A program made the translations under genes and the position numbers. A stretch of 64,000 nt of DNA from contig OZ223236.1 of the NCBI GenBank assembly GCA_965140445.1, positions 4,775,191 through 4,839,190 of the forward strand, in the 5' to 3' direction. Position 1 is the stretch's first letter; each line of letters begins with the position of its first letter. Of this stretch, positions 46,801 to 63,698 are shown in pieces. This DNA is from Candidatus Ozemobacteraceae bacterium (GTDB lineage: Bacteria; Muiribacteriota; Ozemobacteria; Ozemobacterales; Ozemobacteraceae). Under the pieces are notes generated by a model. The model had not been told where the DNA came from. It searched no databases and saw only the letters and a list, made by a program, of their open reading frames with translations.

Positions 46801-49800
46801 AGGAAATGTGTTTGTGGCGGTAATCTGCTTAAACTTCAAATTATCCAGAGGAAGATTTCCCCCGCTAAATGCAAATAGCTGTTTCTCTGAAGTTGTCTCA
46901 CCTATACTCCATCCACCAAGGTCAATCTTGTCATTCACAATAAAAATTCTCTTACAGGGAGGCACAGTAACAATGAACTGAAAAAGGTCATAAACCTCAT
47001 CAATATCAAAGCTACTATTTGCATTTCTATCATTAAAAAGTGACATGGTAGCAATATAGGTTCCCGCAGGTTGATTATAAGGAACAAATAAACTTCCCGA
47101 AGCAGCCACAGAACCTCCTGCCGCAATAGCTCCAACCGGAGAAGGGCTGAAGCTCAAATTTGCTTTACCTATTTTCTCGGACCCAGGCCCGTTCAAATCC
47201 GTTGTAATCCATTGCACATCGTCTAATGGGTAGTTTCCCGTGTTGTCCACCCCAGTATTTTCCATGGTCGCGTCTCCACAGAGAATAGATCCGAAATCCA
47301 AGGTAGCAGAAGACAAATCCATAGCTCGGCGATAAATAACCAGATTATTCGAAGTGGCCAGGTTGGAGGTCACAGTAGCATTTGTATTTAGATCCCTTCC
47401 TTGAAGCGAAAAAGCTGCGTCACCTGTCAGACTATAATTGCCAGCAAGACCAGTATCTTGAGTTGCTTTATATTCCCATGTGATCTGCTGACTATCCTGA
47501 GCAACCACATCAACATATGTTGGAGTCGGACCGCTCACCAGTTCGGCATCCCCAACAGCTCCACCAGCCAGAGTAAGTAATGAAGGAACGGCTGAAGCAA
47601 TAGTAGATCCATTAACAACAGTATTAGTTGCAACCATAGTTACAGTGAAATTTTCACCAACAAAAACACTTGCTGGTGTAATCGTTAAATCAGTCGTTAA
47701 ATTACCCTGATTTTGAACTTTAAAATATTGCAAACCAAGCATATTCCCACGCGTAGTGCTACTTGAATCAGCATCATCCTCAATAATAACACTCCAATCA
47801 CCAATTGCTGCGGTAACCGGAAGAGTTCTAAGATAATCCACATATCCATTAACATCAGCGGCCAAAGGTGGAGAAACATTTTCCCATCCGGTTGGCCCCG
47901 TTCCTGCTTGTGGAATCATCGAGTTATAAAGTCTGATGCGATACCACTGAGACCCTGGAGTTAATCCAGAAGCACGAATATAAACGGTTTGCGTCCTGTT
48001 AAAGTTATCCTGCAAAGGATCAAAATCACTATCCGCTGAAAGCACAATCCCAACCGGATCTATTGTCCAGCTATCATTTGGAGTCAATGCGTTCAAAAGA
48101 GTAGTTGATGCTGGCCAGTTGCTGTCATAATATTGAATTTCAGCAGAGAAATTGCTTAAACCCGTTGCTGAATCCGGAGCAACTGAAACATCATAAGTTA
48201 GAGTTGTGGTAACCCCGCTAGGTATTGAAAGCGGCAAAGCAGGCGAAGTTAAAACCTGGCCGAAAGTTCCGAGGGTAAAACTTAAACTGGCCACATCTAC
48301 AACAGCTGTGGATTGTCCATTGTTTCTAACATCCACAGTTACCTGAAGGTTCTTCTGATTAAGATACACAACTGTTGGAACAGCACTCACATTCTGGACA
48401 GACAAACTTGGAGGAGTTTGAATTAAACATATATTGCTGGTAACCGCCGGACTAGTTAAGAAATCATTGGAATTAGCGTCGAAACCATAAGCAGTAGCAG
48501 AAGCTGAAAAGTTCCCTGGAGTTAGAGCACTAAAATTCCAGGTCATGGTTGCCTGAGAATTACCAGCTACATTAATAACTGCCGGATTTGGCCCGCCAGT
48601 AGTAGAAACAGTTCCAGGTCCATTCAACTGAAGAGTGCTGGCATATCCACTTGAGATTTCTGCCCCTCCGGAGTTAATGAAGGTGAGACTTGCAATAAAA
48701 GGCTGCCCGACTGATACAGTCGATGGAAGCAACATTGAAATAGTAAGGGCTGCAGGAGAAACCACCTCAAACTTATTTTCGCAGGAAACAATAGTTCCAA
48801 TGGGGTTGGTTATTTGAATGGCCCAGTCTCCATAAGGAGAAGCCGGAGACAAAGAATATTCATGATAAAGGGTTCCTGAAGCATTTGCCGTTAGAGGGCT
48901 GGAAGAAGCAACTTCTACGCCGAAAGGATCGAGCCATCTTACAACAAACTCTCCCCATGGAAGCAAATCTTCCCCTTTAGCATAAACCTCTGTCGTTCCA
49001 ACTGTTGGTTTATTAAAACTTGCTGATGGATACAAAAAAGAAGCATCTTTATAACTGTTAATTTTTTCTGCAAGAATTGTCCAGCTTGCTGGTAAAAGCG
49101 CATTAGAATACGAAATTGGGAATAAAGTATTATTATCTGTTCCAGTTACGTCTGCATCAACCACTGAGGTTCCCGTTGCGGAAACAGGAGATATATCTAC
49201 CCCGTATCTAGCTTTAGTTTCTAAACCGCCAGGAATAGCCAGCGGAAAAACAGTATTAGCATAAACATCATCATAAGTACCAAGGGAAAAATGCGAAAGC
49301 AGATCTGAACTAGTCCAGTTTGCAATAGCCTCCCCAGGATTTGAAACCCTAATAAACACAGGGGTATTGGTTTGCCCTCTATAAACTGTAGACGAAGCTG
49401 TAACTTCCTCAATAACAAGCTGGGCAGGGTTCTGAATAGTCCACGAGTCGGTAATGCTTGCCACAAGATCTTCGGTCAATTTTCCTGAAAAAGTATTTGT
49501 GCCAGACGCAGTGGCACCAATAATTGCAACTCCAGAAGGGTTAACAGGTAAAATATTAACAGTTACGGTGGCTGTAAAACTTGATAGTCCATTAATCACA
49601 GTGCCAAGCGCCGGGCTGGTGATTAATTGAGTATAAGTCCCCAGGGTAAATGTTAAAGACGCCACATCAAAGGTATATGGAGTTTCGCCCTGGTTTTCAA
49701 AATAAATCCTGACAGGAATACCATTTTGCCCTTTGTTCACGTGGGTTGGATAAGTTTCAACCTGGGTAATAACAAGGTTCGCCTTACTTCTAACCCACCA

Positions 49801-52728
49801 TTTATGAGGAGTTTGGGCAAACTCGTCAAAAAAGGTTGTTGCCCCAACAGTTGCAGTAGCAACAGCATGAATGGTTGCCGTTCCAACAGGTGAATCATCC
49901 CACACATTTACAGAAAAAGTGGCAAGGATGGTCCCTCCAGGAGGAATAGAAGCAGGGAGAGCGGGTGATACTAAAGTAGAAGTATAGCTACCAAGATCAA
50001 AAGTTAAATCTATTTCGTCCAGGTCGACTGCCCCAGAATAAAAATTTCTGACTTCTACACTTACTTCTATATTATCCTGCCCCTGGGAAACTCCCTGCGG
50101 CGTATTTGCTGAAATAGTATCGATCGAAATACCACCGTATATGAGTCGCACTTCATCGAGATAAGGCAAAGCACCATTTGCACGTCGCTGAAACTCTACT
50201 TTATACTGCAAAAATCGCAGATCTGGAGAAGGAATTGCAGCAGAACCGTTAGTGTTGCTGGTTGCAATCGTAGACCATCCGCTCCATCCGCCAAGTTCTG
50301 GCAATGCCGTTGGACCTGTGCGAACCGAGTATTTCAGTTGCCCGTCAGCGCCGCCCGTTGCCCAATATTGCAAAGTTTGCCAATCAGGATTTGAGGTTCG
50401 CGAATCAAAAACCATAGACTGAAATTCTGCTACTGAAACCTGGGTTCCGACATTACCACCAATGATAGTTCCAACAGTATAGTTACCTCTAAATGCGTCC
50501 ATGCACTGGTAAAATGCAGTTGAAGAGTTTGCAATACCAATATTTAAAGGGGTATTTGTCATGTAGCGGGTGCCATCAGAGTTGCTTATCCCAACAGTGT
50601 GGTCTGGATCAATGTTTACTGGCTTATCCCAGACCGTTGGTCCAATAAGTCCCCTGGGGCTTAAATATCTATAGCGAAGAGCAATGTCACCTGTTTCATA
50701 AATAACTGTCTGAACGTAATAAATGTCATCAGTAGCGTTGTATCTATTACAGTTCCAGCTAAAAACAACTCTGGTCGGGTCAGACAAATCATCTCGATAC
50801 AAACCGGCATCATCCAATCCTTGCACCATCAAATCCACCCAGATTGGGGCGATAATCTTGTTAAAGCCGCCGCCAATAAATTCATTCCAGGTATTTGTAT
50901 AATCCCCATCCTGGTTTCGAGCCATATTACCGTTGATATTTAAACACCAGGTGTTTTGCAAATTAGTTCCGTAAAAATAAAAGGGAAATGGTAGATTAAA
51001 ATAGGGAGTATAACCATCATCCGTATTGGTTGTTGCCAACCCTAGAGCGGCACCATTAGGAGCATTTTCCGGCCCTGCCGGCATATTTTTTCGCGTATAA
51101 TAGGGAGTCCATTCGTTAATAGAAATATCCCCAGAGTTCATAACAAATCCGTATGCGGGATCTGCAACTCCGGTATTCCCCCAGTAAACCCAGAAAGTCC
51201 TTTTTTCTCCCCTGGCCATATTAACAAGGAAAACAATATCCGGACCAGTTGTGCTGGTATTCAAATTATATCTAGGCAGTTCATTTCCCTTATCATCAGA
51301 AACTCTGATTTCATTGACGCTGCCCATTTGTCCTGCAGGAATAGTCAGCTGAATTCTGCATGGGGCGTTTATTCTTTCAGTTACACCCGGCTCTGTAACC
51401 TCAACAGGAACTGAATATCGCCAGTAACCAGCCCCACCTGTGCCAGAAAAATTCTTTGGATATACCCTACCAGGATTAGTGGTTAAATCTATCTGATCTA
51501 AAACTCTGGCGTTATTGAAAAATGTCTGTGATGCTGTATCTGTCAAGACCTGATCTCTTCTAGATAAAAATCCATCGCTGAAACCAGAACTTTGCACCGC
51601 ACCAAGAAGATCAACAACACGTGCACCGCAGTAATAGGTTGTTCCGCTAGCCAACGTCAGCCCCGTGAATACGGCATGGTCTGAAAGTCCTACATCTGTC
51701 CACGGCACCACATCATCGCTTCCCGGAGATGTTCCAACACACGCATCATACCTTAGAATAGAAGCAGGAACGTGAGGCCAATTAGATTCAACCCTATCCT
51801 CAAAAAACGAATATGCTATATCTGGACCCAAACCGTCATTCACAATAAACTTTAATACCATAGCTTCAGGAGAATAAGGCGAAACCACTCCACCTGAATC
51901 TACATCTGTGACAACGTAATAAACAATAGGCGCAGAAAGCGGAGATGTGTCTGTATAACTATTGGTATTCGTAACCGCAATCTGAGTATAAGGGCCGCCA
52001 GAAGTAGTGCTTCTGTAAACTCTATAAGGCGAGGTTCCATGAAGAGTTACCGCATTACTGGTGCTGGGATTCCATGTAAGATCTATATTACTTCCGTTTG
52101 GAGTGGCAACCAGACCGGATGGACTCATGTTTAGACTACAGTTATCCCAGTAAACAGCTGTTTCTTCACCATTATCCGCCTGAATATGAAGATAAATACG
52201 ATATAAAAAAGAACCAACCGGGTCAACCAATGATGTGACGACGTCAGATTGCCAGCCGACATGTCTTGAATCCCAATTGGTTGTGTTCTCAGAAAAAAAA
52301 GTAACCGCAACTGTTTCATTAGGGTATCCAGCACTTCCATCAATTCGAAGTGTGCCAGCCAGATCAAAGTTATCATAAACACCTGTATATATATCTCGAT
52401 GATCAAACCGAATCCGAACATAAGCCTGATCAATTGGCCCAGGAAAGGATTGTTCAAATATAAGATCAGAATCTCTATTCCAATTGTTACCCCGGAAGTA
52501 ACAGTAATAAGAACCCACAGGATTCCCGTCTGCGTTTGTCCATGTGTAGGTATTCATATTGGAGTTATTATCAAATACTCTGTGATCAATAGTCCAACCA
52601 TTGGTGTTAGTAGTTAAACCAGTGTTTTGTAGTTGCTCAAGCGCACATACCCGCGCCGCTGGCAACAAAAACAAGACAGCCAGGCAAAGCAAAACTCCCA
52701 ATGTGGAAACTCTAAAATTAGTTTTCAT
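43798..52728 (-). CDS. Giant secreted multi-domain protein (2976 aa): jelly-roll, FN3, DUF2341-like and NIDO-like modules, CARDB-like repeats, about 7-8 ASH/choice-of-anchor-D-like Ig repeats, C-terminal CBM4_9-like jelly-roll
   Basis: Signal peptide MKTNFRVSTLGVLLCLAVLFLLPAARVCA and a single uninterrupted ORF. Recurrent modules are described in the findings. Confidence 0.85.
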   Translation of the reverse strand: MKTNFRVSTLGVLLCLAVLFLLPAARVCALEQLQNTGLTTNTNGWTIDHRVFDNNSNMNTYTWTNADGNPVGSYYCYFRGNNWNRDSDLIFEQSFPGPIDQAYVRIRFDHRDIYTGVYDNFDLAGTLRIDGSAGYPNETVAVTFFSENTTNWDSRHVGWQSDVVTSLVDPVGSFLYRIYLHIQADNGEETAVYWDNCSLNMSPSGLVATPNGSNIDLTWNPSTSNAVTLHGTSPYRVYRSTTSGGPYTQIAVTNTNSYTDTSPLSAPIVYYVVTDVDSGGVVSPYSPEAMVLKFIVNDGLGPDIAYSFFEDRVESNWPHVPASILRYDACVGTSPGSDDVVPWTDVGLSDHAVFTGLTLASGTTYYCGARVVDLLGAVQSSGFSDGFLSRRDQVLTDTASQTFFNNARVLDQIDLTTNPGRVYPKNFSGTGGAGYWRYSVPVEVTEPGVTERINAPCRIQLTIPAGQMGSVNEIRVSDDKGNELPRYNLNTSTTGPDIVFLVNMARGEKRTFWVYWGNTGVADPAYGFVMNSGDISINEWTPYYTRKNMPAGPENAPNGAALGLATTNTDDGYTPYFNLPFPFYFYGTNLQNTWCLNINGNMARNQDGDYTNTWNEFIGGGFNKIIAPIWVDLMVQGLDDAGLYRDDLSDPTRVVFSWNCNRYNATDDIYYVQTVIYETGDIALRYRYLSPRGLIGPTVWDKPVNIDPDHTVGISNSDGTRYMTNTPLNIGIANSSTAFYQCMDAFRGNYTVGTIIGGNVGTQVSVAEFQSMVFDSRTSNPDWQTLQYWATGGADGQLKYSVRTGPTALPELGGWSGWSTIATSNTNGSAAIPSPDLRFLQYKVEFQRRANGALPYLDEVRLIYGGISIDTISANTPQGVSQGQDNIEVSVEVRNFYSGAVDLDEIDLTFDLGSYTSTLVSPALPASIPPGGTILATFSVNVWDDSPVGTATIHAVATATVGATTFFDEFAQTPHKWWVRSKANLVITQVETYPTHVNKGQNGIPVRIYFENQGETPYTFDVASLTFTLGTYTQLITSPALGTVINGLSSFTATVTVNILPVNPSGVAIIGATASGTNTFSGKLTEDLVASITDSWTIQNPAQLVIEEVTASSTVYRGQTNTPVFIRVSNPGEAIANWTSSDLLSHFSLGTYDDVYANTVFPLAIPGGLETKARYGVDISPVSATGTSVVDADVTGTDNNTLFPISYSNALLPASWTILAEKINSYKDASFLYPSASFNKPTVGTTEVYAKGEDLLPWGEFVVRWLDPFGVEVASSSPLTANASGTLYHEYSLSPASPYGDWAIQITNPIGTIVSCENKFEVVSPAALTISMLLPSTVSVGQPFIASLTFINSGGAEISSGYASTLQLNGPGTVSTTGGPNPAVINVAGNSQATMTWNFSALTPGNFSASATAYGFDANSNDFLTSPAVTSNICLIQTPPSLSVQNVSAVPTVVYLNQKNLQVTVDVRNNGQSTAVVDVASLSFTLGTFGQVLTSPALPLSIPSGVTTTLTYDVSVAPDSATGLSNFSAEIQYYDSNWPASTTLLNALTPNDSWTIDPVGIVLSADSDFDPLQDNFNRTQTVYIRASGLTPGSQWYRIRLYNSMIPQAGTGPTGWENVSPPLAADVNGYVDYLRTLPVTAAIGDWSVIIEDDADSSSTTRGNMLGLQYFKVQNQGNLTTDLTITPASVFVGENFTVTMVATNTVVNGSTIASAVPSLLTLAGGAVGDAELVSGPTPTYVDVVAQDSQQITWEYKATQDTGLAGNYSLTGDAAFSLQGRDLNTNATVTSNLATSNNLVIYRRAMDLSSATLDFGSILCGDATMENTGVDNTGNYPLDDVQWITTDLNGPGSEKIGKANLSFSPSPVGAIAAGGSVAASGSLFVPYNQPAGTYIATMSLFNDRNANSSFDIDEVYDLFQFIVTVPPCKRIFIVNDKIDLGGWSIGETTSEKQLFAFSGGNLPLDNLKFKQITATNTFPIFLNPVNPGPLAKTGSIVASVSSTISVGPNGSYIATWTLWNDENSDDIVDASEASDTFQVSVQVGGKSFSLLPSPVDAGIGTPSTVVTGFGPTLNNTGMLALNKLKSIFSPLTDGLGNEIASSGIGINPAISLPINAGDSVPVEMRLFVPAGTAAGLFSGTQVIFEDNNLNGVWDPSEASATFVLQVDVPLVRLIQVLIPTVDIGGVAPGNSRTVSFPCRNIGNVTLTDLRWEKQNLVSGANTVPSAQVNFPPAEPFTVAAGQFFNHDIQLTVPLGQTFGSYLSVAPNYWIYDDFNPANLTRNVDEAEYTFKVRCQIGEQKIDILEPSLVSPGDPNAQSTSILFNVKNTGSLSLSNPKATGTVLIPSAPGPINIPATRNVFVPSSLGAILSTQTKQGQWYVNIPANASAGIYLAQLTVWEDSNSNNQIDPAEATDTISLQLTVNSARVVDVVQTQLDLGWGSENTTVEGQIEVVNAGNVDLTEVRPLSADIIFGFTNIPAGNITFNPVSLGVLPVGASALATVTVVIDSNQADGTYTGNQRVYDDYNAANSLWDAAEEFDLFEILLRIGKKSVYETDPSNPAIDFGARNPGSSYSQSFTVYSGTSVPLSKVKWKIDSPLSIATYSMPVASLSFTPAGSFSIAGGGSRSCSAIVDVGNYTPPGQYVATASVWEDDNSDGNIQSAEASASFNVVVSINPVYQIDILDATLDFGQIAQGASVTKEIGFRNLGNTSLTNFNWSFSALNFGAFSIPDTDIVNPGNYSPDPVPPGAYGTSTVDIVPDPAQELGVYGPDGPQTLSAALPGSPSDVCDFICEVIAGDTGGINIASGSISQEIATTTFSALAPNNRFALSAWVCPGSGSASLAFVMADSAGEPVTTIGIKVLADGTVIPSAGLVDSGIVETVPFNHPDYPAETNMKFYRVFITFDLTYTEPMPFASTHIVLQNNSLGVGDPAAVWFDGVQLEKLSETGIPKPSSFHPAGHLISPTLEKTIGGDNSYYEW

Positions 52729-53527: not shown

Positions 53528-54529
53528 ATGCCTCAACTAAGAAAAGATCCGGTTACAAAACGCTGGGTAATCATCCTTCACGAACAGGATAAAAAACCAG
53601 AAGATTTCAAGAGAACATCTTCACCAAGACAATCTAATAATTGTCCGTTTTGCCCCGGAAATGAAGATAAAACACCAAATGAAGTAATGTCATATCGCGA
53701 ACCCGATACTCTTCCGAACCAAAAAGGCTGGGAGGTCAGGGTTATCCCAAATAAATTCCCTGCTCTTGAAATTGAAGGAGACCTTGATAGAACGGGACTC
53801 GGGCTTTACGACATGATGAACGGGATTGGGGCACACGAGGTCATTATTGAGTCCCCGGGCCACAATGACGGCTTCCACACATACAGCAAGGATCAGATTT
53901 TCAGGATTTTGAGAGCTTATACAGACAGATATAGAGACCTCAAAAGAGATAGAAGATTCAGGTACATCCTGATTTTTAAAAATCATGGGGAAGCAGCGGG
54001 CGCTAGTCTTGACCACCCCCATTCACAGCTGATAGCTACGCCGATTATTCCCAAACGAGCCATGGAAGAAATTGAAGGAGCAAGACGCTACTATTATTAT
54101 AAAGAACGCTGCGTTTTCTGTGATGTAATACGCCAGGAACTTAGCTCCGGAAAAAGAATCATTCACGAAAATGAGAATTTTGTTGCCTTTGCTCCATTTG
54201 CGTCTCGTTTCCCTTTCGAAACCTGGATCGCTCCCAAAGAGCATAAAGACTCATTTGGCGACATTGATAATAATGAAATTGAAGGATTAGCAGACATTAT
54301 GAAAGGCACGCTTTCAAAGCTTGTAAAAGCGCTGGGCAATCCACCTTTCAACTATATAATTCACACTGCACCCTGTGATGAGCATTGCTCAGACTACTTC
54401 CACTGGCATCTTGAAATCATGCCACGATTAACGAAAGTGGCTGGTTTTGAATGGGGATCTGGATTCTACGTGAACCCCATGCCACCAGAAAAAGCAGCAG
54501 AATACCTATTGAAAGTCAGCAAAGAATAA
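53528..54529 (+). CDS. GalT-family (HIT superfamily) hexose-1-phosphate nucleotidyltransferase/phosphorylase, paralog 1
   Basis: 333 aa. Zn motif CPFCPGNE, NKFPAL, and active site DHPHSQLIATP (H-x-H-x-Q). Confidence 0.85.
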   Translation: MPQLRKDPVTKRWVIILHEQDKKPEDFKRTSSPRQSNNCPFCPGNEDKTPNEVMSYREPDTLPNQKGWEVRVIPNKFPALEIEGDLDRTGLGLYDMMNGIGAHEVIIESPGHNDGFHTYSKDQIFRILRAYTDRYRDLKRDRRFRYILIFKNHGEAAGASLDHPHSQLIATPIIPKRAMEEIEGARRYYYYKERCVFCDVIRQELSSGKRIIHENENFVAFAPFASRFPFETWIAPKEHKDSFGDIDNNEIEGLADIMKGTLSKLVKALGNPPFNYIIHTAPCDEHCSDYFHWHLEIMPRLTKVAGFEWGSGFYVNPMPPEKAAEYLLKVSKE

Positions 54530-54544
54530 AGTCAGGAGAAAACC

Positions 54545-55546
54545 ATGCCACAGCTACGCAAAGACCCGGTCTTAAAACAGTGGGTAATTATTTCCCCTGA
54601 AAGGGGCAAACGCCCTTCAGATTTCAAGAAAACAAAAAAATCCGATGACGATGCAAAGGATTGTCCATTTTGCCCCGGCAATGAAACCGCGACTCCAGAG
54701 GAAACTCTCTCGTTTCGCACTGCCGGAACCGGCTCGAACGAACAGGGATGGTGGGTCAGAGTATTTCCAGATTCTTTACCGATCCTAACACCTGCTGAAG
54801 ATGCTGGCAGAGAAGGCATCGGAATGTTTGACGCCATGAATTCAATAGGAATCCATGAGGTAGTCGTTGAAACCCCCAACCACTTTTCCGGACTGCAATC
54901 CTCTACTCCAGAACAGGTAAGAGAAGTCATTTGGGCCTACAAACAACGTCTTGTAGAAATTAAGAAGAACCCAATGTTCAAACACTTTATGATTGTAAAA
55001 AACTCGGGAGAAGGTGTTTCGAACTTTTCTCATCCGCACTCACACATTGTTGCAACCCCTATCATTCCTAAAAGGATAGAAGAGGAGCTTGAGGGTTCCA
55101 GAGAATATTATCACTACCACGACAGATGCCTTTACTGCGACATGGTAAAACAAGAAGTAAAAGAACAGGTCCGCGTAGTTTTTGAGGACGACAAATTCCT
55201 GGTCTTCTGCCCATTCGCCTCAAGGTTCCCATTCGAAATGGGAATTATCCCCAAGGCTCACCACCCTTTCTTTGAAACCATAAATAACGATGGAGTACAC
55301 AGTTTTGCAAATGCTTTGCAGATTGCGCTAAAAAGGTTGGAAGCCCTGCTTCCAGGCCAGCCATACAACTTTGTTCTCCACACCTCCCCGTGCTCTGATG
55401 CCTATAAAGACTTCTACCACTGGCACATCGAGATTATCCCAAAATTAACCAAAATCGCCGGCTTCGAATGGGGCTCCGGATTTTACATCAATCCAACCAG
55501 CCCAGAGAACGCCGCAGAACTTTTAAGAGATGTAAAAATAGAATAA
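54545..55546 (+). CDS. GalT-family (HIT superfamily) paralog 2 with an H-x-H-x-H active-site motif
   Basis: 333 aa, collinear with paralog 1 without gaps. CPFCPGNE; active site SHPHSHIVATP; the NKFPAL equivalent has diverged to PDSLPIL. Confidence 0.8.
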   Translation: MPQLRKDPVLKQWVIISPERGKRPSDFKKTKKSDDDAKDCPFCPGNETATPEETLSFRTAGTGSNEQGWWVRVFPDSLPILTPAEDAGREGIGMFDAMNSIGIHEVVVETPNHFSGLQSSTPEQVREVIWAYKQRLVEIKKNPMFKHFMIVKNSGEGVSNFSHPHSHIVATPIIPKRIEEELEGSREYYHYHDRCLYCDMVKQEVKEQVRVVFEDDKFLVFCPFASRFPFEMGIIPKAHHPFFETINNDGVHSFANALQIALKRLEALLPGQPYNFVLHTSPCSDAYKDFYHWHIEIIPKLTKIAGFEWGSGFYINPTSPENAAELLRDVKIE

Positions 55547-55596: not shown

Positions 55597-55669
55597 GGGG
55601 CTGTGGCGCAGTTGGGAGCGCGTTTGAATGGCATTCAAAAGGTCGTCGGTTCGATCCCGATCAGCTCCA
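55597..55669 (+). tRNA. tRNA-Ala (anticodon GGC)
   Basis: A 73-nt cloverleaf folded by hand. Acceptor GGGGCTG/CAGCTCC carries the G3:U70 alanine identity pair. D stem GCGC/GCGC. Anticodon stem TTTGA/TCAAA with loop AT-GGC-AT. T arm GTCGG-TTCGATC-CCGAT. Discriminator A; followed by CCG, so CCA is not fully encoded. Confidence 0.9.
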
Positions 55670-55715
55670 CCGAAAACCCGAAATCTGCAAAGATTTCGGG
55701 TTTTTTGGTTTTAGG
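55653..55715 (+). repeat. Direct repeat copy 1 (attL-like): tRNA-Ala positions 57-73 plus the downstream terminator
   Basis: 61 of 63 nt identical to 61493..61555 (offset 5840; mismatches at 55693 and 55704). Confidence 0.85.
55677..55706 (+). terminator. Rho-independent terminator after tRNA-Ala
   Basis: Perfect 9-bp stem CCCGAAATC/GATTTCGGG, loop TGCAAA, then T6. Confidence 0.8.
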
Positions 55716-56333
55716 TTTGTTTTGCCATATTTTTAATGAAACCATTGCGCTTGCAATAAGCAAGCTTGCCCTTATACTGGCATCAGATACTCTTCCGGAA
55801 TCCAAAAATTAAGTAATTTTGTGAATACAATAACGGATTGGCTGAAGGACACATCAATAAAATTAAGGTAATCAAAAGAATAATGTACGAAAAATGCAGC
55901 TTCAACACCCTAAAAAAGAAGTCTTTACTGATTCAACAATGCAGCTAATTCAACTAACCATGGAAAGAACCGAAAAATTACTTGCCATTTACAATTCAAG
56001 TTTATTCAGCGCAAAATTAGCTTTCCAGAAGACTTTAAATATCATCATGATCAGTATCTTAAACCATTAACCATTAGATTAAACAATGACCATCATCTCA
56101 GAAAGCTGCTAGTAAATAAAATAAATGAATCAAACAACATTGGAGAGAGAATTTCTTTCCTGTCCATAATGATTCCTTACTTAAGTCGAGACTTTCTAAA
56201 AAATCGCTTTGAAAAAGATGAGTTTGACTGCTTGGGCTATAGTATTTTGTCAAACAAAATTGTATCCCTCCGCGAATTATATAATTCTGCATTAGTTTCA
56301 TAAATGTTCATTCAGGTTTTATTAATAAAGGAT

Positions 56334-58118
56334 TTAGCGTTGAAGCATTTTTTCAATAGCTTGATTCACAACTTTTAATGATGAAATAACACCATCAAAA
56401 AGAAAATCCAAGGCATCAGCATACCCACTATTTAGCTTTGCAGTCTCATACTCTAGTGATTCAAGAAGCTCTTTTGCCCCTTCTTTTTCATGCGCATCAA
56501 TTACTCTTAAGTCATTATTGACAAACAAAAAAGCCAGCTCTATATTCCTCGAATTCCAATCAAAACACTCAGCAGAGCCCCTAAAAGCAGAAATCTTCTC
56601 TGCGGACTCATTAAGATTAGAAACAACGTTCATAAAAGCTTGTATAAGCCGTAATATCCTGAATTTAGAAACTTCATCTCTACCACAGCCAGCTTCTCTT
56701 AATATCCTTCGTAATGGCCCCACCTTTATCTTGTTTATAATCTCATTTATTGTCTTACATCTTGAAAGAAAATCATGCTCACCAATTTTTTCTGAAGCTA
56801 CTTTCGACAACTTTCTAAAAACTGGAAAAGCATTAATTCCTTTTTCTTCATATTCCAAGCGAGCAAATCCAACGAAATCATTAGCAGCAATTGATTCTTG
56901 AAAAAGGGCTGACGAAACTTTTTCTAAATTGTCTCCAAGATTCAAAATTTCGTCCAAAAACCTAAAAGTTTTCGATACAATACTCTCACTCTCGAACTGT
57001 TCAGAACTTATCTCCGTTTTTGAAATAGCAAAATTGCTTAAATACTCCAACTCTCTAATTGGAATTCCACTATAAAGCTCATAAATTGGAACAGACAAAA
57101 AATTTCGGCCAACTCTCTGAAAGCCTCTAAAGCCCCACTGCCCTTTATACCCCGGGCTACAAATGATTTTCCCATCTCGAGTTCTATAAATTGACGAATC
57201 AAAAACAGAATTATCTTCATACTTCTTCAAGAACTCATCTCGCACATACAATAACTCATTCATTCTTAATGATCTAGCTGCACTAGCAGATAAAGGAGAA
57301 TTAAAATCCGGCCAAACAAAAGAGTCTATACTCTTTTCTGAACAAAGCTCAGGTCCTATTGCTACAACTGTCCCCCAAACTTGTATTAAGATACCTTCTT
57401 CAAAGGTTCTTAACGAAAGTTTTCCCCAGTTATTTGGAATAGGAATATCAACATGGCTTTCCCCATTCATTAGCTCTATCAGTGAAGGAGATGTCTCGAC
57501 TTTCTTTTCATAAAAAAACACTCGAACCCCATAATGTCCCCTAAGCCATAAATATTTACGAAGATAACTGTTTTGAATTGTCCATTTTACTTCCTTGCTT
57601 GGGGAGAAATAATATTCATTTGAAACATCTCCTTCTGCAACGCTCATCTCTGGAAGAGACAAATTATCATAAACCATTCTTTGCTCTGAATTTCCCAAAA
57701 TTCTTGGAGATAAGCCAAGCGACATCCAAACTTTTTCAGCTAAGGCAAAAGAGTAATGCGAGCCATCTCCCCATGAGGCTACAATATAGTCATAGCCTGA
57801 CACACTAGGAGAAAAATTGGAAATCTCCCCCTTTTTCTGGGCCCAAGGTTCAGAGTAAGCAACAACTCCATCATTACATTCACGGCAAACAGAAATTGAA
57901 TCAACTTCTCCTTCGGGAACTGTAGCCATAAGCATATGCAAATTCTCACGTTCACCCTCAATTTGGTTCCCATTTGTCTCAAAATGTGATGTAACACAAA
58001 TCTTCTCTAATGGCGCAAAAGATTTGACTGGACTCAATAGTTCTCTAAGTTTTGGCGGCAAATCCTCCCCTTTCAGGGGTAGCTTTGATAGATAATCAAT
58101 CATCCTTAAAATTCCCAT
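56334..58118 (-). CDS. Large island protein D (594 aa), paralog of the upstream 571-aa protein; C-terminal helical region with an R-x4-H motif
   Basis: Uninterrupted ORF that overlaps the upstream gene by 23 nt (8 nt if the ATG at 58103 is used). LRVIDAH lies at aa 538-543 (56490..56507). No Walker or other catalytic motif recognised. Confidence 0.7.
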   Translation of the reverse strand: MGILRMIDYLSKLPLKGEDLPPKLRELLSPVKSFAPLEKICVTSHFETNGNQIEGERENLHMLMATVPEGEVDSISVCRECNDGVVAYSEPWAQKKGEISNFSPSVSGYDYIVASWGDGSHYSFALAEKVWMSLGLSPRILGNSEQRMVYDNLSLPEMSVAEGDVSNEYYFSPSKEVKWTIQNSYLRKYLWLRGHYGVRVFFYEKKVETSPSLIELMNGESHVDIPIPNNWGKLSLRTFEEGILIQVWGTVVAIGPELCSEKSIDSFVWPDFNSPLSASAARSLRMNELLYVRDEFLKKYEDNSVFDSSIYRTRDGKIICSPGYKGQWGFRGFQRVGRNFLSVPIYELYSGIPIRELEYLSNFAISKTEISSEQFESESIVSKTFRFLDEILNLGDNLEKVSSALFQESIAANDFVGFARLEYEEKGINAFPVFRKLSKVASEKIGEHDFLSRCKTINEIINKIKVGPLRRILREAGCGRDEVSKFRILRLIQAFMNVVSNLNESAEKISAFRGSAECFDWNSRNIELAFLFVNNDLRVIDAHEKEGAKELLESLEYETAKLNSGYADALDFLFDGVISSLKVVNQAIEKMLQR

Positions 58119-59811
58119 TCATTAAACTTTCAAAAGCCTCAATTATAAGACCTAATGATTTATCACATTCTGCACAAAGATTTTCAAAGTGCTTTTTATA
58201 ACTTCCAAACTTGGAAATTGCATTTTTTCTTATCTTTTCGGCATCTTCCTCTGAAGGATGAGCTTTTAGCTTACTTCTAAAATTGTGAACATCGTGAAAT
58301 GGGCTTAAAATTTTGTATGCCTGCTCTTTTTCAAAGCCCATACCAATAAGGCAAACTTCAAGGCATCTTAAAGCCCTAAAGTTCTCTTTTACACTGCTAT
58401 CAAATTCTTTTGCTCTTGATCGAAGCCATCCCTCTTCAAGCCCTTCAACCAAAAATTGATCCAAGTACAGTATCTCATTTGCCCATTCGTCTTTTGAACT
58501 TGATACTGGATAATTTACCTTTACAGGAAGCTTTGAGTTTCTTAACTGCCACCATCTACAGTCTGCCTCACCTAACATGGCCAACTTTCTTTTTAAGCTC
58601 AGTAAAGAGTCGTAACCTTCAAAATATTTTCCATTCCAGTCTGTTTCAATTGCACGGTCAGAAAGCCAACCTTCACCTTCAACATTATATTGCTTCCAGT
58701 GGAGCTGCTCATTATGGGGTAGATGGCCAAGATATACTAAATAAGTATGGATATACCCTTCAGAATTTACATCATAAGAACTAAGCCGCCACCCACCACG
58801 ACATGAAAGCGACCTTTCATCAATTTTATATTTTGATGTGTCACTTTTATATTTTAATAATACATCCGGTTTAAAAAAGATTGGAGTTAGTTCAAATGGC
58901 TTTCCGGTGTCTTCAAAAAAATTGTTTAGGCATTTAGGATTGCAGGACATTTCTTCAACTTCATTATTCCGTATGTTCTTTCCGAGAAAGGTAGCAAACG
59001 CCTTTTTGCCAGGGTCTTTCCCCACAATAGAATTAACAATCTCTTCCATTGTTAAATCAAAATCAATGATCTGAAATCCTCTTGTAAAGCTACCATTGTT
59101 TTGATCCCAACCAAATCTCCAATTTATATTGGCACTATGTTGTTTTTCCTCAACAAGTTCATTCCAGCCACAAAATTCACTTTGAATTCTCGTAAAATCA
59201 AAAACTTGATAAAAAACCATTTCTTGTAACACAGCATATTTGCTTAATTCATTTTTATCTATAGTTACAATTGCATTGGAATAGAGCTTTTCTGAAGATT
59301 CAAAAGGATGAATTTTTACTACATCAAAAAGATCCCCCTCTTTATCAATCTTACACCAAGCCCTCCGCTCATCAACCCAGTGTAGATCTAGGGGCTGCGA
59401 AAGTTTTTGGCTCAGCTCAAAATAACACTTTTCAAGTTCATAACCTTCAAAACTCCTGCCAAATAAAAGCTGCTCACCATTTCTGACCAAAGAATTTAGA
59501 CCATATTCTAATGGAGAGCCAACCCAAGCCTTTCTCACGGTTGCCTTGATTCCCCAAGAATCATATGGCGAATGATCCCAAGATAAAAGCTCATTAGAAT
59601 CAACCTCCCTAACCATTGATTTCGGAACCAAAATGCCATAAATCAATACGTTAGGTATCGAAGCATAAAGAATTAAATTGCTTGATTGAGCCTCTTTTTC
59701 CAAAAAAGGGATTACTTGCTTTTGTTTCAACCAATCCTTAAATTCCGCATCTCTTATTGGACTTTTCGACAAACCTATAAGTTCATTAACTCTTTTTTTT
59801 ACCATAGTCAT
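58096..59811 (-). CDS. Large island protein C (571 aa); C-terminal helical region with an R-x5-H motif
   Basis: Uninterrupted ORF starting 3 nt after the stop of the nuclease-fold gene. FRSKLKAH lies at aa 511-518 (58258..58278). Trp-rich, with no NTPase motif. Confidence 0.7.
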   Translation of the reverse strand: MTMVKKRVNELIGLSKSPIRDAEFKDWLKQKQVIPFLEKEAQSSNLILYASIPNVLIYGILVPKSMVREVDSNELLSWDHSPYDSWGIKATVRKAWVGSPLEYGLNSLVRNGEQLLFGRSFEGYELEKCYFELSQKLSQPLDLHWVDERRAWCKIDKEGDLFDVVKIHPFESSEKLYSNAIVTIDKNELSKYAVLQEMVFYQVFDFTRIQSEFCGWNELVEEKQHSANINWRFGWDQNNGSFTRGFQIIDFDLTMEEIVNSIVGKDPGKKAFATFLGKNIRNNEVEEMSCNPKCLNNFFEDTGKPFELTPIFFKPDVLLKYKSDTSKYKIDERSLSCRGGWRLSSYDVNSEGYIHTYLVYLGHLPHNEQLHWKQYNVEGEGWLSDRAIETDWNGKYFEGYDSLLSLKRKLAMLGEADCRWWQLRNSKLPVKVNYPVSSSKDEWANEILYLDQFLVEGLEEGWLRSRAKEFDSSVKENFRALRCLEVCLIGMGFEKEQAYKILSPFHDVHNFRSKLKAHPSEEDAEKIRKNAISKFGSYKKHFENLCAECDKSLGLIIEAFESLMNGNFKDD

Positions 59812-59814
59812 CTT

Positions 59815-60450
59815 TCACCATTTCCTTTTTTTGGTTGTCCAATATCCTCCATCTGCATTTGGCTTACCAGATACATCGCAACGTGTGGCTCTCTTCAATT
59901 CAAACGGCATTTCCAGTTTTAAATGTCTATAACCTTTCTCATTTATCATCCAATTAGGAATATTTGCCAGATCTAATTTTAAAGGCCTTTTCGGGCTAAG
60001 AAGGGCGAAATGCGGAACAACATGCTTCCAATCTTTTCCATCTTCTCCAAAAATACTCTTTAAACGATTCATTTTGGCATTCATTTGCTTATTAGTCCAA
60101 CCACTTGTGGCCTTTGCCTCAATAAAGATTAAATGAGTTTTATTCTTTGTTTCAAATGCGATCAGAAAATCGATATCTTCTTGTTGCCCCTTTATTAAGC
60201 CCTCGTCATTTAAGAAGATCTCTTTATTGCCTTCTTTTTCTGAAGCGATCCTTAAGCAAGCATAAACCCAATCCAAATGATAATCCATTGCTGAAAAAGC
60301 ATCTTTAGGAATGTTTAAATTCAGAATTATAGAAAGGTCATTCCTAAACTTTTCTGATAAACTAAAGCAACTATTTCCTAGACATTGCTTTACAACAAAA
60401 AATCTTTCCTTGGAGTTAAAAAGCTCAAGCTGTTGAATTATCCCTCTCAT
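59815..60450 (-). CDS. PD-(D/E)xK nuclease-fold protein
   Basis: Motif D-IDFLIAFE...(16 aa)...IFIEAKA, i.e. D104/D106 ... E123-x-K125 in track numbering (60112..60171), on alternating hydrophobic beta-strand patterns. The ATG at 60450 (MRGIIQQ...) forms an ATGA overlap with the upstream stop. Confidence 0.6.
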   Translation of the reverse strand: MRGIIQQLELFNSKERFFVVKQCLGNSCFSLSEKFRNDLSIILNLNIPKDAFSAMDYHLDWVYACLRIASEKEGNKEIFLNDEGLIKGQQEDIDFLIAFETKNKTHLIFIEAKATSGWTNKQMNAKMNRLKSIFGEDGKDWKHVVPHFALLSPKRPLKLDLANIPNWMINEKGYRHLKLEMPFELKRATRCDVSGKPNADGGYWTTKKRKW

Positions 60451-60830
60451 TTTCCATCCTCTTCCAAAAGCCAGTAAGTAACCCAACCTTCAAGACCTGA
60501 TGAAGTTCTTATTTTTCGACCATTTCCAGACTTTTTAATTATAGTCACTTTTTCCCCATGATTTGCTTTTCCAGTAAATTCTCTTGTTTGGTATTTTTTC
60601 CAAACATTTACCTTTTTCATAAGGTAATCAGCCTGTTTATCATACCCATTAATTATTGCAGGAATACTTAATTGGTCAGACTTTACATACGCATCTTTAT
60701 TTGACTCGATATCTTTTACAGGCCTTAAGCTATGATGCGTTGCCGCTGTTCCAATTTCATTTTTGCCATCTTTAATAACTGAACGATCTTCGCAGCCAAT
60801 AAATCTCACAATAAAAATGAATGCTAACAA
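60447..60830 (-). CDS. Small putative lipoprotein with an SH3b-like C-terminus
   Basis: TTG start. A hydrophobic N-terminus ends in the lipobox-like FIGC. The C-terminal GEKVTIIKKSGNGRKIRTSSGLEGWVTYWLL resembles bacterial SH3 domains. The N-terminus is atypical because it has no basic n-region. Confidence 0.4.
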   Translation of the reverse strand: MLAFIFIVRFIGCEDRSVIKDGKNEIGTAATHHSLRPVKDIESNKDAYVKSDQLSIPAIINGYDKQADYLMKKVNVWKKYQTREFTGKANHGEKVTIIKKSGNGRKIRTSSGLEGWVTYWLLEEDGK

Positions 60831-61045
60831 AATAATAAATTAGCTAGAGCAACAGCCAAAGGTTTTAGGCTTATCTTGTATTGGTTTTCCGCAATTAAGA
60901 CAAGCTTCTGCTGAAGCTGAAAAATCATTACCTCAATCTGAACTTTTTAAAAGTGCCATTTTTCTTCCTCTTATTCTTTGAATAGAAGTTTGTATATTGC
61001 TTATCTAATTTCCGAAAATTTACTCGTTCGCCGGGAGAACTCCGC

Positions 61046-61279
61046 CTATTTTATTATTGATGTGTTAATAGCAATCTGGTTCATAAAGTTTCCATGAACC
61101 TGAACAAGAGATTTAGTCACACACTCTCCGCCGTTAGGACTATTTCCCTTTTCAATAAACCATGCACATCTATCTTTGATACAAGGTTTTGAGACATTGC
61201 ACAAACATAAGTAGTCATAATATTTCCCCGCTTTATTTATTTTAGCTTTCAAAAAAGCTTTTCTAAACCAACTTCTCAA
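61046..61279 (-). CDS. Small Cys-rich hypothetical protein
   Basis: 77-aa ORF at the attR-proximal end of the island. No motif recognised; coding status uncertain. Confidence 0.3.
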   Translation of the reverse strand: MRSWFRKAFLKAKINKAGKYYDYLCLCNVSKPCIKDRCAWFIEKGNSPNGGECVTKSLVQVHGNFMNQIAINTSIIK

Positions 61280-61492
61280 CCCAAATATTATTATGTATTC
61301 TTTCTGTCTATCAATATATCATAAAGCCTGTAGAATGATTGCCTAAATTCTTGTCACAAATACCCTCTATAAAAATTGATTTTAGTGATCCGTTTTTGCT
61401 TAAGAAAAGCAAACAAAGGGTAACTTTGGGGGTAACTAACATTTTCCATGCAAAGCAAGTCGCGCCAACTAAAGCAACACGTAATACTATTA

Positions 61493-61555
61493 GATCCCGA
61501 TCAGCTCCACCGAAAACCCGAAATCTGCAAAGTTTTCGGGTTTCTTGGTTTTAGG
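61493..61555 (+). repeat. Direct repeat copy 2 (attR-like): orphan 3' fragment of tRNA-Ala plus a slightly degraded terminator
   Basis: Identical to the tRNA 3' end from T-loop position 57 onward. Upstream sequence has no tRNA 5' half. The hairpin carries one mismatch (GTTTTCGGG). Confidence 0.85.
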
Positions 61556-61721
61556 ATTTTATTTACCAACTCGACGACCATAGCATTGGCAAATTTGAGC
61601 GACTCAAAAAATCTGTATCCTGCTGAACCATTTAATTAAATAAAAGAACTGAAACTGTTTTGACCGTGACCTTGTAAGTAAGGTATCGTATATTCATATT
61701 AATCTGGCTTTAGGAGTTTTT

Positions 61722-63698
61722 ATGAACAGATGTGTGAGAATTCTTTTGGTTTTGTTGTTTTGTTGTTCTACTCAATTTGCAATGGCAGGCCCAGATAAGC
61801 CGGATCTTGTAAAGCTATTTGAAAGCGGGAATCCAACTTTTTTGCAGGTCAAACAAGCAATTCTTGATGGAGCAAATGTTAATCCAGAGACCGCATCAGA
61901 CGCTCCTCCTATTTTTGCAGCTGTTGCAAAAGCTGAAAGCATATATGTAATAAAGTGCCTTATTGATAATGGAGCGGACGTAAACCTTACCCCATTACCT
62001 GACTTTAATGTGTTAGCACTTGCTTTTTTACATAATAAACCAATTGAAATCATTGAGTATTTGCTCAAAGCCGGAGCCGCTATAACCACAACTGCAATAG
62101 AAACAGCAATTTCCAACGTAGACTTGAAAAGGATTAAGCTCCTTGAAAAGTATGGAGTAGACTTTACTAAAGAGGGACCCAAAAGAGGTTCAGCAAACCT
62201 CCATTTTGCAGCTGGTAGGAACCCCAATCCAGAGGTCATAAAATATTTGCTTTCTAAGGGATTCAAAATCAATGCCACAAATAGCATTGGAACGACTCCA
62301 CTTCATTTTGCTGTGAAAAGCAATAAAATAGCTTTGATAACAGAGCTTTTAATATCTCTGGGAGCAGATATTGAGGCAAGAGATAATCATGGAAGAACTC
62401 CTCTCCTTCTTGCAACTGAATTTAACGACAACCCGGAAGTTGCAATGGCTTTAATTAAAGCCGGTGCAGAGACTAATGTTTGTGATGACGAGGGAGTCAC
62501 GCCTTTGATGTATGCTTCATATTTTCCACTTCAAAGGCCTGTGTTAAAAGTGCTTTTGCAAAGCCGCCCAGATATAAACCAGAGCGACAAAAAAGGTTTT
62601 ACAGCTTTATCCTGGGCATGCGCGAACCCAGACAAAAAGAATCTGGAAAACATTAAAACCCTTCTACAAGCTAGTGCAAACATTGAGAGCAGAGACTGCC
62701 AGGGAAGAACTCAGTTATCCTATGCAATCTCCGTAAACAACAACCCAGAAGTAGCAGAATTACTGATTCAATCAGGAGCAGACATACATGCTGTAGACAA
62801 TAAAAAAATGACACCATTAATGCATGCTGCCTCAAAAAATGGCTTCAGTGAAGTTGTTTCAATGTTGATTAAAGCAGGAGCAAAGCTTGAAGCCAGAGAT
62901 ACAAACAAAAACACAGCTTTAAGTCTGGCTTGCAGCTTTGATGGAACAGAAGAAAATGTAAGAATTTTGCTAAAAGCAGGAGCAAGAGTTAATGTAAAAA
63001 ACTCTAAAAACGCTTACCCAATTGATTACGCTGCAACAAAATCTTTTAGCATTGAAATAATCAAAATGCTGTTAGATTCCGGTGCAAAATTTGTCAAAGG
63101 CAGCAAATCTCTATATTACGCTCTAGGTGTAGCAAGCAGAAGCTCTACAGACTTGAACCTTTTTAAAAGAATTTTGAAATTTGGATACGATTTAAATAGA
63201 CAACACGAGCTTGGAGATACAGTTCTAATAAGCGTGGCGGGTTACTGCCTTAACCCTGCAGTAATTGACTATCTTATAAGATCAGGGGCTAAAACCAATC
63301 TTAAAAACAAATTCAACATGACAGCCATGCTTGAAGCAGCTTCCTACAACTCAAACCCGGAAATTATAAGAGCCCTTGCCAGAGGTGGCGAAGAGGTTGA
63401 CTACAAATGGGACTTGAACATCACTCCGCTTATTATGGCCAGCTGGCAAAATGAAAATCCAGAGGTAGCATTAACTCTGATTCAGCTTGGCGCCAATATT
63501 GAAACAAAAGATGATCACGGCAGAACTCCATTAATTTGTGCAGCCCAAAACAATAAAAACCATGAAGTCATTAGAGCTTTGATTAAAGCAGGCGCTAACG
63601 TAGAAGCAAAAGATAAAGATGGAAAAACCGCATACGACTACATAAAAGAGAATCCGAAGCTTGAGAACAAAGATGTTCTGCAGGATTTGCTCTACTAA
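61722..63698 (+). CDS. Secreted ankyrin-repeat protein (about 18 ANK repeats)
   Basis: Signal peptide MNRCVRILLVLLFCCSTQFAMA. Repeated ..G.TPLH.A........V..LL..GA..N motifs run throughout the 658 aa. Confidence 0.9.
   Translation: MNRCVRILLVLLFCCSTQFAMAGPDKPDLVKLFESGNPTFLQVKQAILDGANVNPETASDAPPIFAAVAKAESIYVIKCLIDNGADVNLTPLPDFNVLALAFLHNKPIEIIEYLLKAGAAITTTAIETAISNVDLKRIKLLEKYGVDFTKEGPKRGSANLHFAAGRNPNPEVIKYLLSKGFKINATNSIGTTPLHFAVKSNKIALITELLISLGADIEARDNHGRTPLLLATEFNDNPEVAMALIKAGAETNVCDDEGVTPLMYASYFPLQRPVLKVLLQSRPDINQSDKKGFTALSWACANPDKKNLENIKTLLQASANIESRDCQGRTQLSYAISVNNNPEVAELLIQSGADIHAVDNKKMTPLMHAASKNGFSEVVSMLIKAGAKLEARDTNKNTALSLACSFDGTEENVRILLKAGARVNVKNSKNAYPIDYAATKSFSIEIIKMLLDSGAKFVKGSKSLYYALGVASRSSTDLNLFKRILKFGYDLNRQHELGDTVLISVAGYCLNPAVIDYLIRSGAKTNLKNKFNMTAMLEAASYNSNPEIIRALARGGEEVDYKWDLNITPLIMASWQNENPEVALTLIQLGANIETKDDHGRTPLICAAQNNKNHEVIRALIKAGANVEAKDKDGKTAYDYIKENPKLENKDVLQDLLY

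Follow-up and report, generated by a model that had tools for sequence, protein, structure and literature searches.

The locus studied here raises a question that compact gene rows often pose: do four tightly packed genes encode one defence machine, or do they stand side by side as genes that each work alone? The genes, here called A to D, are four co-directional open reading frames (ORFs) on the minus strand of a stretch of 64,000 nucleotides from the genome of Candidatus Ozemobacteraceae bacterium (GenBank assembly GCA_965140445.1, contig OZ223236.1, positions 4,775,191 to 4,839,190). This whole stretch is called the window below, and all coordinates follow its own numbering. A first-pass annotation had placed the four ORFs at the positions where we found them as well, and had proposed that they form one co-functional four-gene system. 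Based on the distribution of their homologues, we consider it highly probable that the genes are independent modules. For the complete picture, a compact islet that stacks independent single-gene modules and in which C and D are candidates for a sensor joined to a HEPN-type effector, our judgement is evenly balanced.

The arrangement of the genes in the window is the natural starting point. Gene A (60830..60447, minus strand) comprises 127 amino acids (aa) from a TTG start, of which the last 57 residues show a weak SH3 likeness. It is followed by gene B (60450..59815, minus strand), with 211 aa from an ATG or 223 aa from an upstream TTG at 60486, which shows a motif pattern of the PD-(D/E)xK type. 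Gene C (59811..58096, minus strand, 571 aa) belongs to an uncharacterised family and has the same architecture as gene D (58103..56334, minus strand), a member of a widespread and likewise uncharacterised family, which comprises 589 aa, or 594 aa if translated from 58118. Direct reading of the sequence confirmed the close packing that had been described before: A and B share an ATGA overlap (...GGAAAATGAGAGGG), B and C are separated by a gap of 3 nt (TGA-AAG-ATG), and C and D overlap by 8 nt or 23 nt, depending on the start of D. The 8-nt overlap is favoured because the homologues of D begin at MIDY. Within the row, a terminator scan revealed no terminator-like site at any junction. More than 100 homologues were found for each of B, C and D, with E values between 1e-20 (the weakest listed match of B) and 1e-187, so these three are real genes and not chance ORFs. 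In this genome the row is transcribed as one unit, and its genes are probably also coupled in translation. A location on one strand, overlapping or nearly abutting junctions free of terminator-like sites, a similar GC content and a joint position as cargo of a single islet all fit one four-component defence or abortive-infection system, in which B would act as nuclease effector beside the paralogous sensors C and D, all in fixed stoichiometry.

However, the homologues of the four genes point in a different direction. Related loci were taken from a scan of GTDB species genomes with a C profile (at least 542 relatives, 80 loci kept), from a metagenome scan with a D profile (80 loci) and from IMG/VR (14 D, 4 C and 1 B loci), and further loci came from exact-protein look-ups, plasmid searches and E. 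coli searches. Co-occurrence was then assessed by tblastn of A to D against all 191 loci. Neither A nor B was found together with C or D in any of the ~190 related loci, and each family is overwhelmingly solitary: C stands alone in 77 of the 80 C-seeded genome loci and is accompanied by D in 3, D stands alone in 75 of the 80 D-seeded metagenome loci and has a C relative beside it in 5, and all 14 viral D loci (IMG/VR) contain D alone. Homologues of C, D and B each occur solitarily in Billgrantia, Vibrio, Enterobacter, Pseudoalteromonas, P. aeruginosa, Paraburkholderia and E. coli. No homologue of A was detected in the related loci, and homologues of B often lie amid housekeeping genes. Clustering of all neighbouring ORFs gave no recurrent partner of C; transposases and integrases ranked next, with no more than 9 loci. 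Around C and D, we detected neither a conserved small ORF within 700 bp nor a conserved partner gene that holds family-wide. The closest homologues of D (46-47% identity) have neither C nor B upstream. Components that co-occur and are co-oriented in unrelated genomes, as expected of a multi-gene system, were thus not found for the four-gene row, and a comparison with the catalogue PADLOC-DB v2.0.0 (5027 models) returned nothing significant.

Because A and B never accompany C or D, no partner recurs, and the closest D homologues lack both C and B, one four-gene system is unsupported, and we regard it as very improbable. The survey of homologue co-occurrence that the first-pass annotation had itself suggested as a check hence turned against its proposal. 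As to co-translation and fixed stoichiometry, which it had deduced from the junctions, co-expression in the window stands, whereas a fixed stoichiometry does not, as the families are independent elsewhere. The tight junctions reflect compaction of the islet, not an obligate partnership. The lesson is that start/stop overlaps in a compact islet do not prove one system and that co-occurrence across genomes needs to be checked. One candidate deserves separate mention: a 208-aa gene upstream of the closest D homologue was considered as a possible B and ruled out, as it is not a B relative. The protein has an R-x4-H of its own (LRHVNVH; locus L195, 435-1061, and locus L196, 1-702) and may represent another small HEPN-like gene.

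If the row as a whole is no unit, do at least C and D belong together? They are adjacent in four independent arrangements, the window included. In the window they form an overlapping tandem of C then D; in a cassette common to Shewanella, Bermanella and Alteromonadaceae, whose copies are 94-100% identical, they are divergent; in locus L111 they are divergent with a 261-aa gene in between; and in locus L155 D precedes C in tandem with a gap of 44 nt. Beyond the window, C-D neighbours were recorded in loci L065-L067, L148 and L159, in L111 and in L155. Between the arrangements, the C sequences are only 30-54% identical, and adjacency in 3-6% of the loci compares with well below 0.1% in a rough estimate for random placement that was derived from the GTDB scan counts. 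Such recurrence suggests a facultative pair, either a heteromer of distant paralogues or two sensors with one response, to which B and A would be passengers, and the shared architecture of the C and D models would be consistent with heteromerisation. However, the partner is absent in more than 90% of the loci, while order, orientation and spacing vary. The closest D homologues lack C, and another D subclade is paired with an unrelated protein of ~1072 aa. Furthermore, Gabija or AbiE genes are neighbours of C about as often in raw counts, so that clustering in defence islands could explain the adjacency. We therefore consider a facultative C-D pair unlikely.

The ~1072-aa protein is a conserved neighbour within that one D subclade, with 51-100% identity among loci. 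Its gene is co-directional and directly upstream of D in L127, L128, L130, L131, L139, L141 and L145, and convergent in L120. The N-terminus shows an Mrr-like pattern (FEIFCRKL...GGGDSKAD...ERWxFAFSxK). PDB sequence searches gave no match, and hhalign detected no similarity to B, C or D. The protein may be another single-chain candidate in which a nuclease and a sensor are combined for defence.

If C and D are stand-alone proteins, their own features have to indicate what they do. The statement of the first-pass annotation that the gene set matches no known system held up: scans of the four proteins against Pfam, NCBIfam and PADLOC v2 gave nothing significant, and PDB sequence searches of C and D, with single proteins as well as profiles, gave nothing either. 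When 34 members of the C family and 30 of the D family were scanned singly against Pfam and PADLOC at E<=1, no consistent family emerged; the sole stray match among these 64 proteins was CARF_HEPN (E=0.019). Structure models were obtained with AlphaFold2 (AF2), with a mean predicted local distance difference test score (pLDDT) of 90.1 for C and 85.5 for D. Foldseek found no match at E<=1e-3 for the models of C and D in the PDB, nor for that of C in BFVD. In the AF2 models, both proteins are beta-rich up to about residue 360 and continue with an all-helical C-terminal domain (residues 366-564 in C and 375-588 in D), and the order of strands and helices is nearly parallel between them.

The two large proteins had been called paralogous, a label that can be kept in part. 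Direct comparison by BLASTP gives no signal (E=0.78), and hhalign of the full-length proteins yields a probability of ~1%. On the other hand, parallel secondary structure and a weak but collinear hhalign match argue for a relationship: the C-terminal domains align with P=0.0019 over 103 collinear columns, while mismatched-domain controls gave 0.19-0.3, and a second weak match (P=0.02-0.03) links equivalent N-terminal elements. The alignment of the C-terminal domains pairs R with R and H with H of the motifs described below. Paralogy of C and D is thus plausible only as distant homology.

Neither large protein had been credited with a recognisable motif in the first-pass annotation. This was too strong. 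While it is correct that no Walker A pattern exists in C or D, and no NTPase family of Pfam matches, each protein contains exactly one Rx4-6H motif, which is virtually invariant within its family. In C it is R512-SKLKA-H518 (58258..58278, minus strand), a HEPN-like Rx5H with R conserved in 107 of 108 and H in 108 of 108 homologues. In D it is R533-V-I-D-A-H538 (56490..56507, minus strand; context NNDLRVIDAHE), a HEPN-like Rx4H, both residues of which are conserved in 116 of 116 homologues. In 54 of these 116 sequences, R is followed by N, which gives the classic form RNxxxH. The motif sits on the third of four conserved helices in both families, and the AF2 models place it at the end of a long helix. 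The Rx4-6H motif is the hallmark of HEPN ribonucleases (RNases). By this mark, C and D resemble HEPN proteins, and their all-helical C-terminal domains are compatible with such an assignment, whereas similarity to a recognised HEPN family in profile or structure was not found for either of them.

The conservation of C along its length is uneven. Its N-terminal 285 residues are the most variable part, with a mean pairwise identity of 29-36%, and the most conserved segment is formed by residues 286-400 (58612..58956, minus strand; FFKPxVLLKYK ... LPxxEQLHWKQYN), with a mean pairwise identity of 62%. On actinobacterial plasmids, partial C homologues occur that cover roughly residues 303-562. Judged from these alignments, the pattern fits a variable sensor joined to a conserved core.

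Which known proteins come closest to such a design? ApeA (Gao_Ape; Pfam HEPN_Apea and ApeA_NTD1) is a single-protein HEPN anticodon nuclease that cuts tRNA anticodon loops once activated. Its split HEPN domain is C-terminal (335-583), with the catalytic residue R502 and the active site in helix H3. Like ApeA, C and D are stand-alone single polypeptides of similar size with N-terminal two-thirds that lack detectable sequence homology, and they share with it a helical C-terminal domain with R...H in the third core helix, ~50-80 residues from the C-terminus. The position of R502 in ApeA, within its HEPN domain at 335-583, corresponds to that of R512 of 571 residues in C and R533 of 589 in D. Defence and mobile-element contexts are common to both as well. 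In contrast, ApeA is predominantly alpha-helical throughout, its N-terminal and Mid domains included, whereas C and D are rich in beta structure over residues 1-360, and neither protein matches HEPN_Apea, ApeA_NTD1 or the PADLOC model of ApeA at E<=1. A similar logic, an Rx4-6H RNase domain and an unknown domain encoded by one gene, is found in other HEPN nucleases of abortive infection that consist of one protein, namely DARNA, PD-T4-2, AbiD/F, AbiJ, AbiU2 and AbiV, yet none of their PADLOC models matches C or D. DARNA, which equals PD-T7-3, has its HEPN domain at the N-terminus, ahead of a helical C-terminal domain, whereas the domain that bears the motif is C-terminal in C and D.

A third comparison was provided by the structure search. 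The top Foldseek match of C in the PDB is Avs3 (8dgc; E=0.012, prob 0.99, 251 columns, TMq 0.21), which is below significance, and the same entry is among the matches of D (prob 0.60). Avs3 and Upx are single-chain sensors for pattern recognition with a small nuclease effector, and the likeness to them consists of a large unannotated sensor and a small effector on one chain. However, C and D lack a STAND NTPase domain as well as a Walker A motif and reach about one third of the size of Avs3. Upx demonstrates that such sensors without a STAND domain exist, but its C-terminal domain is PD-(D/E)xK and not HEPN.

The genomic surroundings of C and D homologues are the remaining line of evidence. 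In the GTDB scan, C is patchily distributed over at least 12 phyla at 33-46% identity, consistent with horizontal transfer. The D family comprises at least 422 clusters at 90% identity; it has no match in the INPHARED phages. In Enterobacter, an element with integrase, AlpA, Bro-N and D5-primase genes carries a D homologue at its end. In E. coli, where a D homologue occurs in 3 of 5426 genomes, it follows directly on a lambdoid prophage integrase and is located beside an ABC-three-component-system island. On prophage contigs of IMG/VR, D is often found at the ends, in Vibrio it adjoins an AAA_13 ATPase gene and a T5orf172 gene, and on Paraburkholderia plasmids it adjoins RepA. In P. aeruginosa, a megaplasmid carries a C homologue next to a type II CBASS. 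Among the immediate neighbours of the 80 C loci are four integrases, two GajB, two AbiEii and two Schlafen/AlbA_2 proteins, one each of DruA, SLATT, Pycsar-TIR and DUF4238, and also a resolvase. The neighbours of D comprise four DUF3800, two SduA_C, two pPIWI-nuclease, two ResIII, two DUF4238 and one AbiH protein, furthermore three proteins that match SMC_N (the one detailed also matches AAA_13), as well as conjugation and phage lysis genes. The defence-type context claimed before is therefore borne out in that homologues of C and D lie amid mobile-element and defence genes, although the counts come without a matched control.

The same surroundings might also be read differently. C and D could be non-immune cargo of mobile elements, such as addiction toxins, factors of competition between elements, or regulators, with the Rx4-6H motif in a site that is not of the HEPN type. 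No HEPN or defence protein matches them in profile or structure, many neighbours are plasmid and conjugation, prophage or housekeeping genes, and in C conservation peaks outside the motif region. However, C and D are each encoded by one large gene that has no conserved partner of the antitoxin kind, and their position at the ends of prophages and satellites and next to genes of CBASS, Gabija, AbiE, Shedu and Druantia is typical of defence genes. Consequently, this explanation appears rather improbable to us.

We instead prefer to see C and D as members of two separate families, distantly related to each other, whose stand-alone proteins of ~570-590 aa would combine a sensor and a HEPN-type effector on one chain. 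The islet would then be a miniature, defence-island-like stack of single-gene modules and no four-component machine. The beta-rich N-terminal part, which is variable, would serve as a sensor or regulatory domain, and the helical C-terminal domain with its invariant Rx4-6H would be the HEPN-type RNase effector. This effector would be kept inactive until infection and would then cut tRNA or other RNA, resulting in abortive infection as with ApeA and DARNA. We slightly favour a defence role of C and D, and we place the use of HEPN RNase chemistry just short of an even chance. A more far-reaching version might be envisioned, in which C and D are sister families in a class of single-protein immune sensors that has not been recognised so far. 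Both families would be spread over more than 12 phyla and are missing from Pfam, NCBIfam, PADLOC and the PDB; a new beta-rich fold with a faint likeness to Avs3 would sense a phage cue and switch on a highly diverged HEPN-type RNase, and the occasional C-D pairing would reflect cooperation of paralogous sensors. We hold this version to be tentative and somewhat unlikely.

Several observations weigh against the sensor and HEPN-type effector interpretation, or against the independence of the modules. Neither profile nor structure searches tie the C-terminal domain of C or D to a known HEPN family, and the Foldseek top 50 contain no HEPN protein, in a PDB copy that was left unchecked for the ApeA coordinates. 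The conservation of C peaks in residues 286-400 and not in the domain that bears the motif, so the active centre of C may lie elsewhere, in this middle segment. The adjacency of C and D is far above random expectation, and some functional link between the two may exist. Finally, many housekeeping genes are also found among the neighbours of C and D, and the enrichment of defence genes is qualitative only, because the neighbour counts lack a matched control.

What, then, are the two remaining genes of the row? B belongs to a large family of its own, with 1309 representative clusters at E<=1e-3, whose members are mostly solitary genes of ~210 aa. Its label as a PD-(D/E)xK nuclease-fold protein is supported by the motif pattern, but a significant profile or PDB match is absent. 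Invariant among 33 sequences are E15, D56, H58, D60, W61, D94, E111, K113, Q122 and K126. The pattern E...D...ExK...Q, with the family-invariant residues E15, D94, E111, K113 and Q122 and the central block D94-FLIAF...LIFI-E111-A-K113 (60112..60171, minus strand), is of the PD-(D/E)xK type and bears its signature; E111 and K113, counted from the ATG, are the residues previously numbered E123 and K125. B thus resembles solitary PD-(D/E)xK nucleases, which are restriction-endonuclease-like, in its invariant E15, D94, E111-x-K113 and Q122 and in an order consistent with an alpha-beta-beta-beta-alpha-beta core. It differs from them in that Pfam, NCBIfam and PDB sequence searches gave no significant match and Pfam and PADLOC scans of 33 single homologues pointed to no consistent family, and in its often housekeeping neighbourhoods. 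Over the motif region, sub-threshold matches to AbiU, PDC-M47B, RE_XamI and HSDR_N_2 were obtained. Several homologues lie amid housekeeping genes, for example between an inositol phosphatase gene and genes for SlyX and an RNA methyltransferase, others lie among metabolic enzymes, and one was found in a region with BrxA, PLD and AAA_15 genes. Searches in plasmids gave no match to B. By its sequence, B is a solitary small protein that carries a PD-(D/E)xK-type motif; it forms a large family apart, and nothing demonstrably links it to C or D.

The search for Rosetta-stone fusions of B yielded one case, in addition to a C-terminal extension in some members. The fused member, P0424, carries an N-terminal DUF6508 domain (E=2.6e-39), and a separate DUF6508 gene is located 4 kb from the B homologue in the region with BrxA, PLD and AAA_15 (L009, 3396-3800). 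DUF6508 is therefore a possible functional link for B. The extension, of ~100 aa, is conserved in four homologues of 305-343 aa (P0249, P0263, P0279, P0295) and reads …NYRGxLxFxEMVxKCxxEGDxxVVGYxGG…KWDW…NW…; it has no match in Pfam.

A is an orphan ORF. It had been described as an SH3b-like lipoprotein, of which a likeness below threshold and a cysteine remain. The match to SH3_3 (E=0.005) reaches 17.4 bits against a cutoff of 27 bits, and that to TIGR04211 reaches 16.5 against 65. The N-terminus, MLAFIFIVRFIGC, contains a Cys in a 'lipobox' FIGC, but the basic n-region is absent. The earliest possible start is a TTG, which has no Shine-Dalgarno sequence. Neither tblastn against any of the fetched related loci nor a PDB sequence search detected a homologue. 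Just upstream of A (60860-60985, minus strand), other frames contain a short ATG ORF (MALLKSSD, then a stop codon) and a stretch with CxxC (ACLNCGKPIQDKPKTFGCC, again ending at a stop codon). Together with A as their tail, these pieces may be remnants of a frameshifted gene of zinc-ribbon, transmembrane and SH3 type.

All four genes are cargo of a tRNA-targeted islet, and this earlier claim proved to be well founded. The target is a tRNA-Ala(GGC) gene (55597..55671, plus strand) identified by ARAGORN and matched by the Rfam tRNA model with 62 bits, which is the sole RNA element that the Rfam scan of the islet revealed. Repeat and terminator scans located the left copy of a 74-nt direct repeat at 55650..55723, which includes the last 22 nt of the tRNA gene and a terminator hairpin at 55672-55705. 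The repeat search placed the right copy, 92% identical to the left one, at 61490..61563, where it marks the distal boundary. The islet between the tRNA gene and the far repeat measures 5.84 kb and is filled by genes A to D, with a GC content of 0.34-0.37 compared to 0.39-0.45 in the flanking genes. With its contact to the tRNA 3' end, the duplication of this end at the far side, a deviant, low GC content and accessory cargo, it resembles tRNA-integrated genomic islands and defence islets. However, no tyrosine or serine integrase is found beside the tRNA gene, and neither an integrase, an excisionase nor a remnant of either exists among the ORFs or in the non-coding ends of this 5.8-kb islet, which sets it apart from such islands. 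The islet is either decayed or mobilised in trans.

Upstream of the gene row, the best match to a sigma-70-like promoter (61287..61314, minus strand; TTGATA-16-AATAAT) agrees with the consensus in 10 of 12 positions, the consensus being the basis of this assignment. Between A and the right repeat, the ORF list contains a Cys-rich ORF of 77 aa (61046..61279, minus strand) that resembles nothing in the fetched loci. Outside the islet, two tandem plus-strand genes directly upstream of the tRNA-Ala gene (53528-54529 and 54545-55546) encode paralogues of 333 aa with 47% identity, which are galactose-1-phosphate uridylyltransferase-like enzymes of the HIT family (top PDB match 1z84, E=2e-72). Further away, a giant minus-strand ORF of 2976 aa (43798-52728) with a signal-peptide-like N-terminus and long repetitive segments resembling immunoglobulin (Ig) and fibronectin domains probably encodes a surface or adhesin-type protein. 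Just past the right boundary of the islet, a plus-strand ORF of 658 aa (61722-63698) has a signal-peptide-like N-terminus and long repeats that look ankyrin-like by eye.

Taken together, a modular islet is a less striking find than a new system of four components would have been. The interest of the locus rather lies in C and D, for which tractable homologues exist: D in E. coli 50EVA (WP_192954900.1) and in Enterobacter bugandensis, and C on the P. aeruginosa plasmid pWTJH6 (WP_023628959.1). If C and D were confirmed as defence proteins, a function would be assigned to two sizeable families, C with at least 542 GTDB matches and D with at least 422 clusters, neither of which has a DUF number. 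If the proposed interpretation is true, a new sensor fold would join the short list of single-protein abortive-infection nucleases that combine a sensor with a HEPN domain, such as ApeA and DARNA.

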